Shown: positions 6,969 through 41,856 of the stretch, in pieces
How positions within the stretch are numbered: position 1 is the first letter of the stretch
Layout of the letters: each line of letters begins with the position of its first letter
Assembly: GCA_045612105.1 (NCBI GenBank)
Contig: JAZKYL010000113.1
Span: forward strand, 226,099 to 290,098
Direction of reading: 5' to 3'
Source: Eubacteriales bacterium
Lineage (GTDB): Bacteria > Bacillota > Clostridia > Oscillospirales > CAG-272
DNA length: 64,000 bases
Translations under genes and position numbers: made by a program
Notes under the pieces: generated by a model
What the model saw: the letters and a program-made list of their open reading frames with translations, nothing else
What the model was told of the DNA's origin: nothing
Databases searched by the model: none

Positions 6969-6997
6969 TTGACAAATCGAAGTTTTTATGATATAAT
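6969..6997 (+). promoter_or_regulatory. Consensus sigma-A promoter upstream of mgsA
   Basis: TTGACA-17bp-TATAAT. Confidence 0.8.
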
Positions 6998-7128
6998 CGT
7001 AGTGTTAGGACTTAAATAAGTTATAGATTTATATTAAAACATTGCGATTTTTTTCACAAAGATTCTTTTCGCATTGGTTTTTTATTAGTATTTTGTCCAA
7101 CAGTTCAAAACAGGATGGAGGAGTTCAA

Positions 7129-7566
7129 ATGGAAATAGCTATCATAGCACATGACATGAAGAAAGAGCTTATCACACAGTTTTGTATTGCATACTGCGGT
7201 ATTCTCAGCAAGCACAATATTTGCGCAACAGGAATAACCGCTAAATATATATCTGAGGCAACCGGACTCAAGATTGAAAAGATGCTTAGCGGAGAGCAGG
7301 GCGGCGAGCAGCAGATCGCTTCGAGAATCGCTTACAACGAAATAGACGTTCTTATCTATTTCCGCGATACCCGACCTTCATCCGATATGTTTTCTGAGCA
7401 TGATAAAATCGAAAAAGAGCTTCTTTTGGCATGTGACCGCTACAACATTCCCGTAGCAACAAATATTGCAACTGCCGAGGTGATTATTATGGCTCTTGAC
7501 CGTGGAGATCTCGATTGGAGAGAAGTCGTTAATCCAACCTCTGCATATAACAGAAGCCGTCGCTGA
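7129..7566 (+). CDS. mgsA: Methylglyoxal synthase family protein
   Basis: IAIIAHDMKK, ATGIT, SGEQGGEQQI, CDRYNIPVATNIATAE; GGAGGAG RBS. Confidence 0.85.
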   Translation: MEIAIIAHDMKKELITQFCIAYCGILSKHNICATGITAKYISEATGLKIEKMLSGEQGGEQQIASRIAYNEIDVLIYFRDTRPSSDMFSEHDKIEKELLLACDRYNIPVATNIATAEVIIMALDRGDLDWREVVNPTSAYNRSRR

Positions 7567-27239: not shown

Positions 27240-27893
27240 TTAGGAAGCCTTTCTGTTAAGATTGCTTTCAAAAAAAGCTTCGCGGTTAATAACGGTTGTA
27301 GCGGGGATATTCAGTTCATCGATCGACGCACAATACGCGAAGGCAAGCTCATCGATAAATTCGAGGATTGGAGGAAGAATTACTTTACTGAGACTGTCAC
27401 AAGCGTAGAAGGTGCTACTTTCAATGACCAAAAGATTATCGGAAAGCGAGATCTCGGCAAGATTTCGACAGCCCTCGAAAGCCGCAGAGCCGAGTCTTGT
27501 AAGCGAATCGGGAAGAGCTACAGAGATGAGAGCAGGGCAATAACCAAAGGCTTTTTCTCCGATACGTTCAAGATTCTCACCAAAATCAATTTTTGCAAGT
27601 CTGTCGCATCCCATAAAAGCTCTGTCGCCGATTTCGGATGCGTTCGAAGTAATCTCAACTAGCTCTCGGCACCAAGCGAATGCCTGAGGCTCAATAAATT
27701 CCACTGATTTCGGAAGAACAACACTCTTTATCTGTGTAGAGCGAGCAAATGCCTTTTCGGCAACTCCAACAACAGGATAGCCCTGAACCGAAGAGGGAAC
27801 AATGATATGCTCGTCGAGGCAGTTACCAATACCGCGCAGAACAGCCACGCCGTTTTTCATAACCACGTATTCAAGTCCGTAAGATATTCGCAT
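27240..27893 (-). CDS. BspA/LRR_5-type leucine-rich repeat protein, no signal peptide
   Basis: Repeated LPxSLxxIxxxAFxxCxxL units; GAAAGGAG RBS. Confidence 0.85.
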   Translation of the reverse strand: MRISYGLEYVVMKNGVAVLRGIGNCLDEHIIVPSSVQGYPVVGVAEKAFARSTQIKSVVLPKSVEFIEPQAFAWCRELVEITSNASEIGDRAFMGCDRLAKIDFGENLERIGEKAFGYCPALISVALPDSLTRLGSAAFEGCRNLAEISLSDNLLVIESSTFYACDSLSKVILPPILEFIDELAFAYCASIDELNIPATTVINREAFFESNLNRKAS

Positions 27894-27945
27894 CGGTGTG
27901 ACTCCTTTCTGCCGACAAGTACTGTGTCGTACTAATTATATGCCT

Positions 27946-27974
27946 ATTTTACACCAAAAATACCGTTTTGTCAA
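27946..27974 (-). promoter_or_regulatory. sigma-A promoter for LRR gene
   Basis: TTGACA-17bp-TAAAAT on minus strand. Confidence 0.7.
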
Positions 27975-28031
27975 CCCCATTATTGCAATTTAACAACTTT
28001 GGAGTGTTTTTTCGTATATTTGTGACAAAAC

Positions 28032-28260
28032 TTAGCCCAGGCTTACAATGCGCTTTACGTCAAGTGCCAGGGCCAAGGACGTTCGCCTTGCGGTTGCAAA
28101 AACGAGCGGCGATTACAGCCCTCAAGGGCAAGCGAGGCTGTTTTCGGCAATGTTTGACATGGGCGAGAACGGCACGCGGGGGCTTATGAAGCTGATTGGC
28201 GAGGCACGAGGTGTTGATCTCGGAAATTTAGCCCAGGCTTACAATGCTCTTTACCAAGTG
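28032..28260 (+). repeat. Imperfect direct repeat at left edge of phage-like fragment (28032-28066 / 28228-28260)
   Basis: ttagcccaggcttacaatgc (20 bp exact) + g/t + ctttac + (gt) + caagtg, copies 196 bp apart. Confidence 0.85.
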
Positions 28261-31200
28261 GGAGCGCGAGGAGAGCATATTTTGAAGGCGAAAAATCCTT
28301 ATATTTCGATGCTTACGCCCGAGCAGGTTGGTTTGGCGTATACTTACGGTCAGATGGACGGGCTACTGGAGAGGGGGAAAAATAAAAATTCGTCTGAGGT
28401 AGTAGAAGAAGCGAAGCCCGAATTTTTGGATAGCGAGAAGGTCGAGAAAGCGCAAGCGGAGGTTGACGCGGCAAAGAGAACTGACGGCAAAAAGAAAAAA
28501 GGCACCGTTATTTACGACGGTGACAGAAGCAAGCTTTCTGATATGCAGAAAAAATCTCTTGACGTATTGGATAAGGTTGCCGAGGCTCTTGGCGTTACGT
28601 TCCGCATTTACGAGTCTGAGAGGGTAAATGGAAAATTCGTTTACGAGAAGCCCGACGGTGTAAAGACGAGCGCTAACGGTTGGTATGATACCAAGACCGG
28701 TGAGATCTGGCTTGATATTAATGCCGGACTTAACGGAGAAGGTACGCTGATCTTTACCGCGGCGCATGAGCTGACGCACTTTATAAAGCAATGGTCGCCT
28801 GCAAAATTCAAGATCTTTGCAGACTTCCTGATTGAGCAGTACGGAGAGCGTGGAATTTCGATAGACGAGTTGGTTCAGAGACGGATCGACAAGAAAAAGA
28901 AAAACGGTGAAGATATAGACCCGGATGTAGCTTACGAGGAAGTAATCGCCGATTCTTGCGAAACCTTCCTTCGTGACAGCAATGCCGCTGAGAAGATAGC
29001 AGAGCTTCATCAGAAGGATGCAAGTCTTGCACAGAAGATAAAGCGATTCCTCAGTGATATGCTCAAGAGACTGCGCGAGCTGATGAACGGAATGGATCCC
29101 GATTCGCTTGAGGGAAAGATGGTTGCTGAGATGACGGGAAGCCTGGAACAGTTGCACAAGCTTTGGACCGACGCGCTCGCCGATGCTGGGGAGGCGTATT
29201 CGGGGGCGGAAGGTGTAGTAAACTCTGAAGGCGGTGTTAAGGAACAGGCGAGAAACGCTAAAAACACAAACGCACAATCAAATAGAACCTTTTCATACAA
29301 TGAGCTTGTGTCAAAGGGGGATCTTTATGGCGTAGTTGTTGATAAAAATCAGCAATTACAAATGAATGGTGGTGTAGTAGATGCGAACTGGCTTGTAAAT
29401 GAGGTGAAAAAGGGTTGCCAAATTAAAAATACCAAAGGAGGACCGGTATATTACGCAGAAGCACCTGATATTGGTAGAAATGTTGAAATTATCAGAGACG
29501 GAATAACTCACGGATTTAACAGACCAAATGACAAAAGAGCAGGTAAATCCACTCCTAATGCCATTATAAATGCTAAAGCATCATTAAATATCATTGAGTT
29601 ACTTCGTCATTCTATAGAAGTCAACAGATCTCAACGAGGTGCCAATAAAGATGTGCCTTATACTCATGTATTGATGGGAGTTATGGAAATCGAGAATGCT
29701 GCAGGGCAAGCAGAATATTATGCGGTTCGTAGCATGGTTCAAGAGAGAACAAATCTCAATCCTCTATTGGTTGAAGTTAACATATTGGGCAAGTTATCAT
29801 CCGTAAATGCAAAAAAAATAGGTTCGCCCGCTGCTCAGGCGGGTAAAAAAACCACAGCCCCTGCAGGTGGCATAACCTATTTTACCTATAGTATAGCAGA
29901 TTTTCTTCAAGATGTCAAGGGGGAATTTGACGATACTTTTTCAAATGATGTTTATGCACATTTTAATATGCAACGCCATGCTAATGATTTTTCGGCTAAT
30001 TTGATGTATTCCGACCGTGATCCTGATGCGCTCACAAACCGTGAGATCTTAGCTAATCTTCTTGAGAGCGAAGATATGTCACCTTCGGAGAAGGGATTCT
30101 TGACGAAGTACAAGAACAAGATCTCTCAGATCGAGGCTAATGAGGCGGAGATCGCCTCCATGGAGACCGAGCTGAAGGAGCTTCGGAAGGCAGGAAAGGG
30201 AGATTCTTCGAGGGCTATCACGCTTGAGGGGAAGATCGAGAACCGCCGCAAGGAGATCGCACGGGATGAGAATATGATCCTCAATCTTGAGTCTACCAAG
30301 CCTATTAAGGAGCTGTTGAAGCGTGAGAAGGATGCCGCTTACGCTGAGGGTATGCTTGCCGGGCAGATGGGGCAGGGAAGACGGGATGCCGCCAAGCTGC
30401 GCCGAGCCGAGGAGAAGCTTGCGGAACAGAAGCGCAAGGACGGTGAGACTCTTGCCGAGTACAGAAAGCGAGTTGTCGAGAGAGAGGCTGAGATCAAGCA
30501 GAAGAACCGTGAGAAGCTGGCAGAGCAGAGAGAGAAGGCACGAGAGAATCTTGATGCGCAGGCTAAGAGGTATCAGGCATCGAGAAAGGCTGCGACCGAG
30601 GGCAGACATAAGACTGCTATGCGCCACAAGATTGCAGACGTTGTCTCTGAGCTTGACAGACTTCTGCGCAAGGGAACTAAGGAGCGCAACGTTAAGATCG
30701 GGCTTCAGGATGCGGTTGCCTCTGCGCTTGAGCTTTTCGATATGAATTCGGAAAAGGTAGAAAGATACAACAAGGCTATTGCCGATCTGGATGCCCGTAT
30801 AGCTGCCGCCACCGATCCCGTAGAGATCGAGGCTCTTACTGCCCTTCGTGAGAAGAAGGTGAGAAACAGCGAGAGGCTTGCGGACAAGCTGCAGGTAATG
30901 AAGAAGGCTTACGAGGATATTCACAACGGTCGTGACGGTGAGAATTATCCTTCGTATTACAAGGCAGAGTGCGAGGCTATTGAGAACCGTATTGCCGAGG
31001 TCATGGAGAAGGTGGGAGACACGCCCATCGGGGATATGTCCCTCGAACAGCTTGAGGCGGTCTATAATATGTACCGCATGGTATTGACCACGGTGCAGAA
31101 TGCCAACAAGATATTCAAGGAGGGCAAGCTGGCTGATCTTACCGATGATGCTGCTGCTATGACCGCGGAGCTTCAGAGGATCAAGAAGCTTGCAGAGGAG

Positions 31201-32955
31201 AGGCTGAAGGCGGGGGATGACATTCGCAGCTTTGTATGGAACGAGCTGACACCTTATTACGCGTTCAACCGAATAGGCTGTGAGACGCTCATGAGCTACT
31301 ACCACGAGCTGATCCGCGGCCAGGACATTTATGCGCGAGATATTGAGGAAGCGCAGCAGTTTGCTGAGCAGACTCGAGAGAAGCACGGATACAACAAGTG
31401 GAAGCTTGATAAGGTACACAGCTTCAAGGACAAGGACGGAAGAGATTTCCGCTTGACGTTGCGGCACATGATGTCGATCTACGCTTACTCCAAGCGAGAG
31501 CAGGCATTTGACCACATGGAGAAGGGAGGCTTCTTCTTCAACAACAAGGAGACCTTCAGGAAGAAAGGTGGAGTGCTTAAGTTCATAGCCTCCAACGAGT
31601 CGGGATACAAGGTGGATGCTCGTATATTCGCTCAGATCAAGGGAGCATTGACCGCCGAGCAGATCGCTTACGTTGACGAGATGCAGGCTTACCTCACCCA
31701 GATGGGAGAGAAGGGCAACGAGGTCACGAGAGTGATGTGGGGAATTGATATCTTCAAGGAGGCTGTATATTTCCCGCTGAAATCGAAGGAGGATTTCATA
31801 TACCAGGCTAACACTCCTGCGGAGACGTCGTCTCTTAAAAACGACGGCATGACCAAGGAGACAAAGCCTCACGCCAGCAATCCCATCGTGCTTGAGTCCT
31901 TCGACGAGGTCTGGGCGAACCACGTGGAGAAGATGAGCAAGTATCACGGGTTTGTTATTCCGATCGATAACTTGAATAAGTTGGTCAACTATGGAACGTG
32001 GATGAGTGGGGAGAGTCAAACGGAACGGGTATTTTCTTCTAATAATGAAATAAGAACTGAGATTGGCGAAGAGGATAGGACTGCCGGCAAGATAGCTGCT
32101 GATTTTATCGATGACGTTTCAAAAATGCAAGATAAAGTCAAGCGCTCCAAACGAAAGAAAAAAATCGGACTTCCTTCCTCTGCACATATCGAGAAAATTG
32201 AAGCCCTAATAAAAACTATAAACGAAGATTTTTCTGCTGATGGATACGAAGTTTGGATTGACGGAACAGCAGTAGATCATCTTATGAGAAGGCATGGAGA
32301 AAATGGTGTTGCCGATCACTCTATGGCTTCAAGAGAAAGCAGAGAGCTTATACCGTGGGTGGTAAACAATCCGGACTCGGGCGAGTTAATTCGCAATACA
32401 GACGGAACATTAGATTTATCCAATAGGTATTTTAATGCAGATGGATCGAAAGCACCGCAAATACGAATGGAAAAGCAAATAGACGGTGATACGGTATACG
32501 TTTCCGAATGTGTGCCTGATAGTATTAATAAAAGAATTTATATTACCAGTGCATACATAAAAAAAGGTAGTACCGATCAACTGTTGAACATAGCTCCTAC
32601 AAGTGGAACTCCGCAACCTACGTCCGAAACGTCTTTTGATGGCAGTACTACCAATAGTAGTATATCACATCCTGGCGAAAATGTCAATAGGAATTTTTCG
32701 ACAAATTCAGAAATGGGCTCTCATTCGATCTCCACCATGCTCGAGGCGAGGTTTGGTCCGGGTGTCAACGAGTATCTCAACACCTTTATAAAAGACCTGA
32801 ACGGCGCAAAAGCGCAGAATGGCGGTGTTATGGGCGGAGTGTTCAACCTCCTCTCCAAGTTCAAAAAGACCTCTGTGGCGGCATCGCTTTCGGTCGTTGT
32901 TCAGCAGCCTACGGCGATCATCCGCGCGCTCAGCGAGATTGACGCGAGGTATTAA
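28048..32955 (+). CDS. Fragment of a phage/mobile-element large polyvalent protein (zincin-like HExxH domain, coiled coil, two nuclease-like variable domains); probably truncated at both ends
   Basis: NGWYD...IWLDINAG...AHELTH...EEVIAD metallopeptidase-like motif; module boundary motifs VKEQAR and MYSDRD; DHLMRRHG...VVNNPD...ITSAYIKK RNase-like domain; no RBS at ATG 28048; ends abruptly at ...SEIDARY. Confidence 0.75.
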   Translation: MRFTSSARAKDVRLAVAKTSGDYSPQGQARLFSAMFDMGENGTRGLMKLIGEARGVDLGNLAQAYNALYQVGARGEHILKAKNPYISMLTPEQVGLAYTYGQMDGLLERGKNKNSSEVVEEAKPEFLDSEKVEKAQAEVDAAKRTDGKKKKGTVIYDGDRSKLSDMQKKSLDVLDKVAEALGVTFRIYESERVNGKFVYEKPDGVKTSANGWYDTKTGEIWLDINAGLNGEGTLIFTAAHELTHFIKQWSPAKFKIFADFLIEQYGERGISIDELVQRRIDKKKKNGEDIDPDVAYEEVIADSCETFLRDSNAAEKIAELHQKDASLAQKIKRFLSDMLKRLRELMNGMDPDSLEGKMVAEMTGSLEQLHKLWTDALADAGEAYSGAEGVVNSEGGVKEQARNAKNTNAQSNRTFSYNELVSKGDLYGVVVDKNQQLQMNGGVVDANWLVNEVKKGCQIKNTKGGPVYYAEAPDIGRNVEIIRDGITHGFNRPNDKRAGKSTPNAIINAKASLNIIELLRHSIEVNRSQRGANKDVPYTHVLMGVMEIENAAGQAEYYAVRSMVQERTNLNPLLVEVNILGKLSSVNAKKIGSPAAQAGKKTTAPAGGITYFTYSIADFLQDVKGEFDDTFSNDVYAHFNMQRHANDFSANLMYSDRDPDALTNREILANLLESEDMSPSEKGFLTKYKNKISQIEANEAEIASMETELKELRKAGKGDSSRAITLEGKIENRRKEIARDENMILNLESTKPIKELLKREKDAAYAEGMLAGQMGQGRRDAAKLRRAEEKLAEQKRKDGETLAEYRKRVVEREAEIKQKNREKLAEQREKARENLDAQAKRYQASRKAATEGRHKTAMRHKIADVVSELDRLLRKGTKERNVKIGLQDAVASALELFDMNSEKVERYNKAIADLDARIAAATDPVEIEALTALREKKVRNSERLADKLQVMKKAYEDIHNGRDGENYPSYYKAECEAIENRIAEVMEKVGDTPIGDMSLEQLEAVYNMYRMVLTTVQNANKIFKEGKLADLTDDAAAMTAELQRIKKLAEERLKAGDDIRSFVWNELTPYYAFNRIGCETLMSYYHELIRGQDIYARDIEEAQQFAEQTREKHGYNKWKLDKVHSFKDKDGRDFRLTLRHMMSIYAYSKREQAFDHMEKGGFFFNNKETFRKKGGVLKFIASNESGYKVDARIFAQIKGALTAEQIAYVDEMQAYLTQMGEKGNEVTRVMWGIDIFKEAVYFPLKSKEDFIYQANTPAETSSLKNDGMTKETKPHASNPIVLESFDEVWANHVEKMSKYHGFVIPIDNLNKLVNYGTWMSGESQTERVFSSNNEIRTEIGEEDRTAGKIAADFIDDVSKMQDKVKRSKRKKKIGLPSSAHIEKIEALIKTINEDFSADGYEVWIDGTAVDHLMRRHGENGVADHSMASRESRELIPWVVNNPDSGELIRNTDGTLDLSNRYFNADGSKAPQIRMEKQIDGDTVYVSECVPDSINKRIYITSAYIKKGSTDQLLNIAPTSGTPQPTSETSFDGSTTNSSISHPGENVNRNFSTNSEMGSHSISTMLEARFGPGVNEYLNTFIKDLNGAKAQNGGVMGGVFNLLSKFKKTSVAASLSVVVQQPTAIIRALSEIDARY
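29811..29883 (-). ncRNA. Predicted ~73-nt antisense small RNA 1 embedded after first variable domain
   Basis: Starts at 7th nt after -10 box; 10-bp terminal stem AAAAUAGGUU/AACCUAUUUU, two internal hairpins, U8 end; prediction only. Confidence 0.6.
29890..29918 (-). promoter_or_regulatory. Intragenic antisense sigma-A promoter 1
   Basis: TTGACA-tcttgaagaaaatctgc(17)-TATACT with extended -10 TG. Confidence 0.75.
32559..32652 (-). ncRNA. Predicted ~94-nt antisense small RNA 2 embedded after RNase-like domain
   Basis: Starts at 7th nt after -10 box; 10-bp terminal stem GGUAGUACUG/CGGUACUACC, AUCAA/UUGAU, two internal arms, U7 end; prediction only. Confidence 0.65.
32659..32687 (-). promoter_or_regulatory. 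Intragenic antisense sigma-A promoter 2
   Basis: TTGACA-ttttcgccaggatgtga(17)-TATACT with extended -10 TG. Confidence 0.75.
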
Positions 32956-32979
32956 CCGCTTTATGACCTCGAATATTAA

Positions 32980-33018
32980 CTCAAAACGAAAGCAAATTGT
33001 ATCGTTTTGAGCCTTTTT
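32980..33018 (+). terminator. Putative terminator after polyvalent-protein fragment
   Basis: ctcaaaacga-12nt-tcgttttgag-ccttttt. Confidence 0.55.
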
Positions 33019-33115
33019 AGTTTATAGCGAGAAAATATATTGCTCATGTTAACCATTTCTTCATTTTTTTTTGATATAATAATTTAAATATTATGCAAAA
33101 TTTGGAGAAATAATT

Positions 33116-33559
33116 ATGAAAACCAAAGTAGAGATCAAAAAACTTGACGAAAGAGCAATAATCCCCACCTACGGTACCGAGTTTTCGGCAGGTGCTGATA
33201 TTTACGCGCTCCTTGACGAGCCCGTAACTATCGCTCCCGGCGAAACCAAGCTTATCCACACCGGACTTGCCATGGCTATTCCCGAAGGGCTTGTAGGGCT
33301 TAATTTTGCCCGTAGCGGCATGGCTACCAAGCGCGGCTTGGCTCCTGCAAATAAAGTGGGCGTTATCGACAGCGACTATCGCGGTGAGGTTATGGTGGCG
33401 CTTCACAATCACGGAAAAGAGCCTCAGACCATCGAGCATGGCGACCGAGTTGCGCAAATGGTATTTGTACCTTATTATGCCGCTGAATTTGAGATTTGTG
33501 ACGAGTTGAGTGAGACTCTTCGCGGCGAGGGCGGCTTCGGTTCTACAGGAACCAAGTAA
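33116..33559 (+). CDS. dut: dUTP diphosphatase
   Basis: SAGADI, ARSGMA, GVIDSDYRGE, RGEGGFGSTG. Confidence 0.96.
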   Translation: MKTKVEIKKLDERAIIPTYGTEFSAGADIYALLDEPVTIAPGETKLIHTGLAMAIPEGLVGLNFARSGMATKRGLAPANKVGVIDSDYRGEVMVALHNHGKEPQTIEHGDRVAQMVFVPYYAAEFEICDELSETLRGEGGFGSTGTK

Positions 33560-41798: not shown

Positions 41799-41856
41799 TT
41801 GAAAATACTTTTAAAAGTGCTATAATAATTATAGCACGACAATGCAAGATTGTCAA
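41799..41856. promoter_or_regulatory. Overlapping opposed promoters for SDR operon (+) and araC (-)
   Basis: + TTGAAA-16-TATAAT (41799-41826); - TTGACA-17-TATAAT (41856-41828); the -10 boxes form palindrome gtgctataat-a-attatagcac. Confidence 0.7.

Follow-up and report, generated by a model that had tools for sequence, protein, structure and literature searches.

Predicted antisense small-RNA genes nested in the domain cassettes of phage-type polyvalent proteins

Probable antisense small-RNA genes within a polyvalent-protein frame

The window analysed here, a stretch of 64,000 nucleotides (nt) of contig JAZKYL010000113.1 from a Eubacteriales bacterium (CAG-272), contains a long open reading frame (ORF) that encodes an internal fragment of a phage-type polyvalent protein, a class of multidomain proteins delivered with the virion. 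Two low-GC domain cassettes are inserted in this protein, and the tail of each carries, on the opposite strand, a promoter-like sequence followed by a hairpin and a T-run (units 1 and 2; Table 1). Our analysis indicates that unit 1 is very probably a real, transcribed and conserved antisense small-RNA (sRNA) gene opposite a protein-coding domain, as judged from sequence comparison. Related units occur behind other cassettes, and what we see is best described as several families of embedded cis-antisense sRNA genes attached to swappable polyvalent-protein cassettes. The reading as a whole, in which every domain cassette brings along a cis-antisense countertranscript that dampens the polyvalent gene, seems to us evenly poised between right and wrong.

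The -10 hexamer of unit 1, TATACT, occupies positions 29895-29890 and is separated from the -35 box by a 17-nt spacer that ends in TGc. The two boxes match 11 of the 12 consensus positions, with the extended -10 element in addition, and the promoter is predicted to be of a near-consensus sigma-A type. A 6-nt leader separates the -10 box from the 73-nt stretch of the predicted RNA. A purine about 7 nt downstream of the -10 box is the expected start site, and the transcript likely starts at the purine at 29883, 7 nt past the box. The RNA has a perfect 10-nt terminal repeat (AAAATAGGTT at 29815-29824 and AACCTATTTT at 29874-29883), and both its minimum-energy and its centroid fold are one long hairpin with internal loops (-34.2 kcal/mol), here called the rod. 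The original prediction, made without database searches, had proposed a minus-strand promoter, a 73-nt RNA, its terminal repeat and an AT-rich surrounding module. The TTGACA and TGcTATACT boxes lie within the interval it gave, the 73-nt stretch from 29883 to 29811 closes in U8, the repeat is exact, and the GC content of the module is 0.36-0.43 as against 0.50-0.59 in its flanks.

These features are unlikely to have arisen by chance. In the window, the pattern TTGACA-N14-TGN-TATACT with at most one mismatch has 4 matches where 0.02 are expected, and none of 100 shuffles reaches 4. Both exact matches (29918-29890 and 32687-32659) are antisense inside the host ORF. The two single-mismatch matches, of the form TTGACA-N14-TGn-TATAAT, are intergenic, at 6969-6997 (plus strand) and 41828-41856 (minus strand), and lie upstream of the ORFs 7042-7566 (plus) and 41756-40974 (minus); since these sites lie upstream of genes, the organism appears to use the extended -10 type, and the pattern suggests its ordinary strong promoter. 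The fold of the unit 1 RNA has a z-score of -4.67, and none of 200 shuffles folds as well. Across the genome (2.96 Mb) there are 383 TTGACA-N17-TAnnnT sites. Only 2 of them combine a short leader (at most 10 nt) with one enclosing hairpin, stable to -20 kcal/mol or better, and a T-run of at least T6, and these are unit 1 and unit 2, both in the host ORF.

BLAST and a covariance model of its RNA each find a single copy of unit 1 in the source genome, and a scan of 150 other genomes of the order with the model gave 0 matches. A miniature inverted-repeat transposable element, with its terminal inverted repeat in many copies, is ruled out by these two results. Neither unit is overlapped by an Rfam match (release 15, E <= 10, positions 27500-33500), the three weak matches in that interval being of snoRNA type and located elsewhere.

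Conservation of unit 1 in homologous cassettes

Profile scans with an alignment of the domain that houses unit 1 yielded 18 genome, 5 metagenome and 3 viral-contig loci. The window and 22 of the first 23 loci were analysed together; the remaining one, L019 (33% identity), did not fall on the anchor and was treated separately. L018 ends with its contig inside the RNA, which leaves 22 complete sequences of this family (family 1). When the three viral loci (L026-L028) are included, the set comprises 26 sequences, namely the window and 25 homologous loci, at 44-62% amino acid identity.

The -35 box is TTGACA and the -10 box is TAnnnT in all 26 sequences. In the window and the 22 loci the -10 box reads TATACT (12 sequences), TATATT (5), TACACT (4), TATTCT (1) or TATTTT (1), with TG before it in 19 of the 23; in the viral loci TTGACA is combined with TACACT or TACATT. 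All 22 complete family-1 sequences display a 6-nt leader and a hairpin of about 62 nt that runs directly into T6-T8, and the hairpin and T-run are present in the viral loci as well. The test named beforehand was whether homologous domains lack the repeat and promoter. The promoter was found in 26 of 26 sequences and the hairpin with its T-run in 24 of the 25 homologous loci, the exception being the truncated L018.

Conservation of the boxes alone is weak evidence because a conserved peptide overlaps them, and it is the choice among synonymous codons that is informative. At the -35 box the Val codon is GTC in 23 of 23 cases, against a background of 0.13 in the same frames (to which all backgrounds given here refer), and the Asp codon is GAT in 19 of 19 (background 0.60). 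At the -10 box, Ile is encoded by ATA in 19 of 19 cases (0.28) and Ser by AGT in 16 of 16 (0.16). The Lys-Lys pair at the U-run is AAA AAA in 21 of 21 (0.44). On the assumption that synonymous sites are largely randomised at 44-62% amino acid identity, these codons point to selection at the DNA level, beyond the protein, for the promoter and the T-run.

The hairpin is conserved as a structure. We laid the rod of one member (L013) on an alignment of the 22 sequences (A2), and 89.0% of the cells form standard pairs, compared with 37.7-44.8% when the partners are slid by 1-3 columns. Compensatory change is seen in 16 of the 23 rod pairs, and the observed covariation score is reached in none of 500 shuffles. 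RNAalifold independently recovers 18 of the rod pairs, 11 of them with compensatory change. In some cases the compensation crosses coding layers: Lys-Lys-Ile becomes Lys-Lys-Val on one arm, and Tyr changes synonymously from TAT to TAC on the other. The outer stem has the consensus (A/G)TAGGC...GCCTA(T/C), and its first base (column 10), 7 nt past the -10 box, is a purine in 22 of 22 sequences. Among the stem cells that are not Watson-Crick pairs there are 68 G·U and 10 A·C, which argues that the helix is maintained on the minus-strand transcript and not on the mRNA.

An AlphaFold2 model of the cassette 1 domain (mean pLDDT 80.6) indicates how RNA gene and protein may share the sequence. The U-run corresponds to the invariant Lys-Lys (model residues 177-178), the hairpin to residues 179-200, and the promoter to a Ser-Ile...Asp-Val-Lys helix (residues 203-212). 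Since the hairpin-encoded stretch encloses the residues with pLDDT below 50 (183-196), the RNA structure appears to be placed in the least constrained part of the protein, a predicted disordered loop of about 20 residues.

A second unit and its recurrence behind other cassettes

Unit 2 lies at the tail of the PBECR3 cassette and likewise has a 6-nt leader. Its -10 box lies over Ser-Ile codons and its -35 box over N-V-N codons, and the relation of the boxes to the reading frame is the same as in unit 1. We surveyed 16 relatives of the PBECR3 cassette from 400 genomes of the order (29-48% identity), which together with the window make 17 loci. A promoter-like site is present at the equivalent place in 15 of the 17, with exact TTGACA in 9 and TTGACT in 4, and an enclosing hairpin of -23 kcal/mol or better with a T-run is found in 11. 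The closing stems of this family are entirely different in sequence between members, with complementarity kept. A conserved motif resembling CGUUUCGGACG occurs at 32620-32632 of the window and in L031, L034-L037, L039, L041 and L044, where it coincides with the linker peptide T-S-E-T. As a mimic of an anticodon arm in the PBECR3-tail RNAs the motif was set aside, in view of its stem of 3-4 base pairs (bp), its 5-nt loop and the overlap with that peptide.

Further units were found behind other cassettes (L003:1376, L004:6053, L009:5650, L012:4451 and L019:3218). When a strict unit detector was applied to 17 ORFs of at least 700 amino acids (aa), it returned at least 14 antisense units and 0 sense units; these counts are lower bounds, as the detector misses unit 1 of the window and L005. 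The five non-polyvalent long ORFs of the window gave no units with the same detector. The surroundings of two prophage giant ORFs (about 80 kb) contain 3 units, each of them antisense and within the giant ORF.

Table 1. Location of the host frame, its cassettes and the two antisense units in the window
Feature	Position	Strand	Description
Host ORF	28048-32955	+	1635 aa; internal fragment of a phage-type polyvalent protein
Cassette 1, LPD3-like domain	29254-30009	+	about aa 403-654; low GC
Cassette 2, PBECR3 (predicted RNase) domain	32002-32712	+	about aa 1319-1555; low GC
Unit 1, -35 box	29918-29913	-	TTGACA; over codons D622-V623-K624 (GAT GTC AAG)
Unit 1, extended -10 box	29898-29890	-	TGcTATACT; over codons S615-I616-A617 (AGT ATA GCA)
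Unit 1, predicted sRNA 1	29883-29811	-	73 nt; bulged hairpin 29883-29819 (about 65 nt) and U8 29818-29811
Unit 2, promoter	32687-32659	-	TTGACA, 17-nt spacer ending in TGa, TATACT
Unit 2, predicted sRNA 2	32652-32559	-	about 94 nt; closing stem GGUAGUAC/GUACUACC, then U7

The polyvalent scaffold and its swappable cassettes

The host ORF contains an HExxH motif (AAHELTHF) and a coiled-coil scaffold in addition to the two low-GC cassettes, and a Pfam scan recognises in it the PBECR3 nuclease-like domain alone, near the C-terminus. It can be aligned to residues 844-2222 of the 2789-aa protein P0026, relative to which both of its ends are missing. A direct repeat of 31 nt (94% identical; 28028-28058 and 28224-28254) lies at its 5' end, with the annotated ATG at 28048 inside the first copy and the two copies in different frames. 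This pair suggests that the 5' end of the ORF has been rearranged and truncated.

The scaffold is patchily distributed: of 120 genomes of the family, 7 have it, with an identity of about 35%. Wherever the context is readable, the giant ORFs found elsewhere are prophage or phage genes. In G238, for instance, the giant ORF closes the phage gene series: genes for a terminase, a P22-type portal and structural proteins precede it, and host genes come next. In L027 its neighbours are a peptidoglycan-binding protein on one side and a BppU baseplate protein on the other. A nucleotide search for distant similarity between the DNA of the locus and plasmids and phages gave no match, and a protein-level search of phages and plasmids returned one weak phage record (23.8% identity) and no plasmid.

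Comparison of the scaffolds indicates that both low-GC modules are in-frame cassettes. The close orthologue P0024 shares about 90% identity in the scaffold; its site 1 is occupied by an allele only distantly related to cassette 1, and its site 2 by an insert unrelated to cassette 2. Site 2 is empty, with the scaffold loop uninterrupted, in P0026, L005, L022, L026 and L027. Cassette 2 of the window is bracketed by two diverged, directly repeated copies of a scaffold peptide, PIDNLNKLVNYGTWMSG on its upstream side and PGENVNRNFSTNSEMGS on its downstream side (31960-32010 and 32668-32718), and the -35 box of unit 2 is located in the second copy. L004 has a similar flanking duplication at a shifted position. 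The flanking peptide repeat may be a trace of the route by which the cassette was inserted.

The cassette 1 domain has 23 database relatives in proteins of 911-2857 aa, and its position within the protein varies. The window copy has no match to Pfam LPD3 (PF18798) at E <= 10. LPD3 does match 5 of the 11 members of the domain alignment at E <= 0.01 (best E 4.6e-06), as well as P0006 (E 3.7e-08; 34 bits, cutoff 27), and the window domain is a putative LPD3 member through its homology to these matching members; hence the term LPD3-like. The LPD3 part of the original guess is supported in this way. MuF_C, named alongside it, matched another part of P0006, outside the cassette 1 domain. A fold search with the domain model against the PDB returned nothing at E <= 0.001.

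How the antisense RNA may act

If the RNA acts as a countertranscript, it would be made constitutively by the host RNA polymerase from the near-consensus promoter, and the immediate succession of promoter and terminator hairpin would yield a short RNA in abundance. Its complementarity to the polyvalent mRNA is perfect, and it would pair with the complementary hairpin there and form a duplex of about 70 bp, which may be cut by a double-strand-specific RNase, RNase III being one candidate. Head-on occupancy of the promoter could add interference. The large late gene would in this manner be kept silent or below threshold in the lysogen, and each horizontally swapped cassette would bring its own silencer. 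For the central step, cis-repression of the polyvalent gene by duplex formation or interference, we lean slightly towards doubt.

Several observations weigh against the countertranscript reading. The window ORF is a truncated fragment amid housekeeping genes, with PolC, rhamnosidase, lipase and leucine-rich repeat (LRR) protein genes on one side and dUTPase and CobW-type genes on the other, and a promoter of its own is not evident: a promoter scan turned up no convincing sense promoter for it. Six of the 22 family-1 loci (L013-L018) are short remnants with stop-free frames of 47-172 aa and are without a large cis target. The boxes of unit 1 overlie the conserved peptide Y-S-I-A-D-F-L-x-D-V-K, and their conservation is partly protein-driven. 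The sequences are related to each other, so that the shuffle statistics overstate independence. Finally, 4 of the 17 PBECR3 loci are without an uninterrupted T5 run, in one case because the contig ends there. The remnant loci and the fragment status of the window ORF would suit a role in trans or in immunity better than cis control.

The remnants are described here with a caveat. The loci were fished by a peptide motif that lies some 30 residues away from the unit; the set is therefore biased, and remnants without that neighbourhood are undetectable. L013-L018 retain an exact TTGACA, the hairpin and the T-run, and the five complete ones score 52-90 bits against the covariance model. In L013, L014, L015 and L017 homology stops about 2-25 codons upstream of the terminator. 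L013 (2980-3330) lies between rnfB and rplA. In the PBECR3 family, L037 is a remnant of 123 aa, and the gene beside it is presumably a tyrosyl-tRNA synthetase, its translation having been judged by eye only.

Alternative explanations

A trans-acting immunity RNA would account for these remnants: an sRNA from a prophage, or from the remnant of one, would pair with the polyvalent mRNA of any superinfecting phage with the matching cassette and so cripple it, and the benefit to the host would explain why units are retained where the frame has shrunk to a remnant, as in L013-L018 and L037, and why the fragment in the window has two perfect units. We consider this explanation unlikely, if worth keeping in mind, because intact prophages carry units too and the remnants, collected with the bias just described, are perhaps simply recent. 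The sense strand offers another reading. There the T-run is an A-run, A8 in the window and A7 in 4 of 22 loci (L011, L014, L015 and L017). In the A7 loci the upstream frame ends in NAKK or NTKK followed by TAG and the downstream frame continues at -1, a -1 frameshift layout, while the other 18 of the 22 are in-frame; the A7 tract could be a slippery site beside a hairpin, a phase-variable tract or decay. Together with the stable hairpin that directly follows A AAA AAA on this strand (-28.5 kcal/mol, z-score -3.94), the layout would fit a ribosomal or transcriptional signal for slippage or pausing that decides translation past the cassette, the antisense promoter being secondary. At -1 frameshift sites, however, the slippery heptamer and the structure are separated by a spacer of about 5-9 nt, and here the distance from A-run to stem is about 0-1 nt. 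Of the four A7 loci, three have decayed to remnants, the excess of G·U over A·C indicates a helix optimised on the antisense strand, and there would be no explanation for the synonymous codon choice that keeps TTGACA and TAnnnT invariant, all of which makes this reading quite improbable.

The exchange of cassettes raises the possibility of a DNA recombination site, an attC-like hairpin folded from a single strand that moves cassettes. At fixed positions of the scaffold one cassette is exchanged for another or is missing, the palindromes at their 3' ends are imperfect and keep structure and not sequence, and the strand asymmetry would suit a folded single DNA strand. The conserved promoter boxes and T-run would be useless to such a site, though, and attC core sites have the form RYYYAAC...GTTRRRY at the base of the hairpin, which the outer stem consensus does not contain. 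The cassettes are moreover in-frame parts of one ORF, unlike integron cassettes, and we regard a recombination site as very unlikely. It is highly unlikely, too, that the unit is a non-functional by-product of a conserved peptide and a low-complexity linker. SIADFLxDVK and NAKK are indeed conserved peptide motifs, and linkers of Pro, Ala and Gly are naturally GC-rich. Such a by-product would not have synonymous codons fixed toward promoter and T-run, nor stem compensations such as the synonymous Tyr change that matches Ile to Val on the other arm, and the architecture recurs in unrelated cassettes with different peptides and is absent from the other ORFs and the sense strand examined. The original prediction had drawn the RNA as a three-way junction with anticodon-arm geometry, and the window sequence can be drawn with the arm CCCGC-CUGAGCA-GCGGG. 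A tRNA-like RNA of this kind is almost certainly the wrong description: the junction scores -20.0 kcal/mol against -34.2 for the rod, the pair probabilities are about 1e-7 for its inner helices and about 1e-8 for the arm, the 22-sequence consensus favours the rod, the arm is not found in homologues, and ARAGORN over 29000-33200 reports no tRNA-like gene, just as Rfam is empty for the units. The 39-nt alternative product suggested along with it fares little better, as among the 21 other homologues L002 alone has an equivalent (T6) of the internal U7.

Relation to known systems

Some features of the countertranscript reading have precedents. The antitoxin RNAs of Bacillus subtilis prophage type I systems (RatA/txpA, SR4/bsrG and SR6/yonT) are convergent with their targets and cause degradation of the target mRNA, whose 3' end they overlap. 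The units resemble them in being antisense small RNAs borne by prophages of Firmicutes, and differ in that the target is one domain within a giant protein of many domains (up to about 3400 aa) and the RNA is fully embedded in coding sequence. A type I toxin-antitoxin pair was itself considered and rejected, for the toxin in such a pair is shorter than about 60 aa and hydrophobic; the overlapped frame has 1635 aa, and up to about 3400 aa in homologues, and the overlapped part of the protein is a soluble domain tail. IS10 RNA-OUT, R1 CopA and pIP501 RNAIII are transcribed from strong constitutive promoters, are about 70-90 nt long, fold into a long bulged stem and act at the 5' leader or ribosome-binding site (RBS). 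The rod of unit 1, with stem segments of 3-8 bp split by internal loops, is similar to these classical countertranscripts. Unlike them, unit 1 lies more than 1.7 kb into the ORF, and it therefore cannot block initiation.

The OOP RNA of phage lambda is a closer parallel. It is reported to bring about RNase III-dependent hydrolysis of the cII-O mRNA (Krinke & Wulff 1987, 1990, as cited in PMC5869508). OOP, antisense to the 3' end of cII, is like unit 1 a short phage antisense RNA that has a promoter to itself, ends in a hairpin terminator and overlaps the 3' part of a coding region. It differs in that here the whole RNA gene, promoter included, lies within one domain of a giant ORF and recurs behind several cassettes in Clostridia-type prophages; any role of RNase III in the present case is by analogy.

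Polyvalent proteins are multidomain, phage-type proteins of mosaic domain content (main text of Iyer et al. 2017, PMC5512222), as are the host ORF and its homologues. In that main text the words 'promoter', 'antisense' and 'linker' each have 0 occurrences. A literature search on polyvalent proteins, antisense RNA, prophages and intragenic promoters, with supplements likewise outside its scope, found no description of such units.

Implications

Cis-antisense RNAs are well known, and a complete RNA gene nested in a protein domain is much less usual. Unit 1 is kept at 44-62% protein identity through synonymous codons and compensations across two coding layers, and in giant phage proteins the units, differing in sequence, recur behind several cassettes that are unrelated to one another. 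They appear to offer a clean natural case of dual coding, with an RNA structure accommodated in a predicted disordered loop of the protein. As the promoter can be destroyed by synonymous changes, the RNA and protein functions could be separated in experiments.

A broader view, which we think is probably not correct, is that the units are portable dual-coding modules of about 110 bp, placed in the disordered linker at the 3' ends of cassettes, that serve both as cassette-specific silencers and in superinfection immunity and outlive the protein in decayed prophages. If this were true, each unit would be an RNA 'antitoxin' for its own domain, the host would keep stand-alone genes of this kind at the ends of decayed prophages, and it would be the RNA gene that dictates the shape of the protein loop, not the loop that shapes the RNA gene.

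The antisense units, as we read them, would add a regulatory or conflict layer to polyvalent proteins that is unmentioned in the main text of their founding description. They also raise the idea that effector domains exchanged by horizontal transfer may be accompanied by an RNA silencer of their own.

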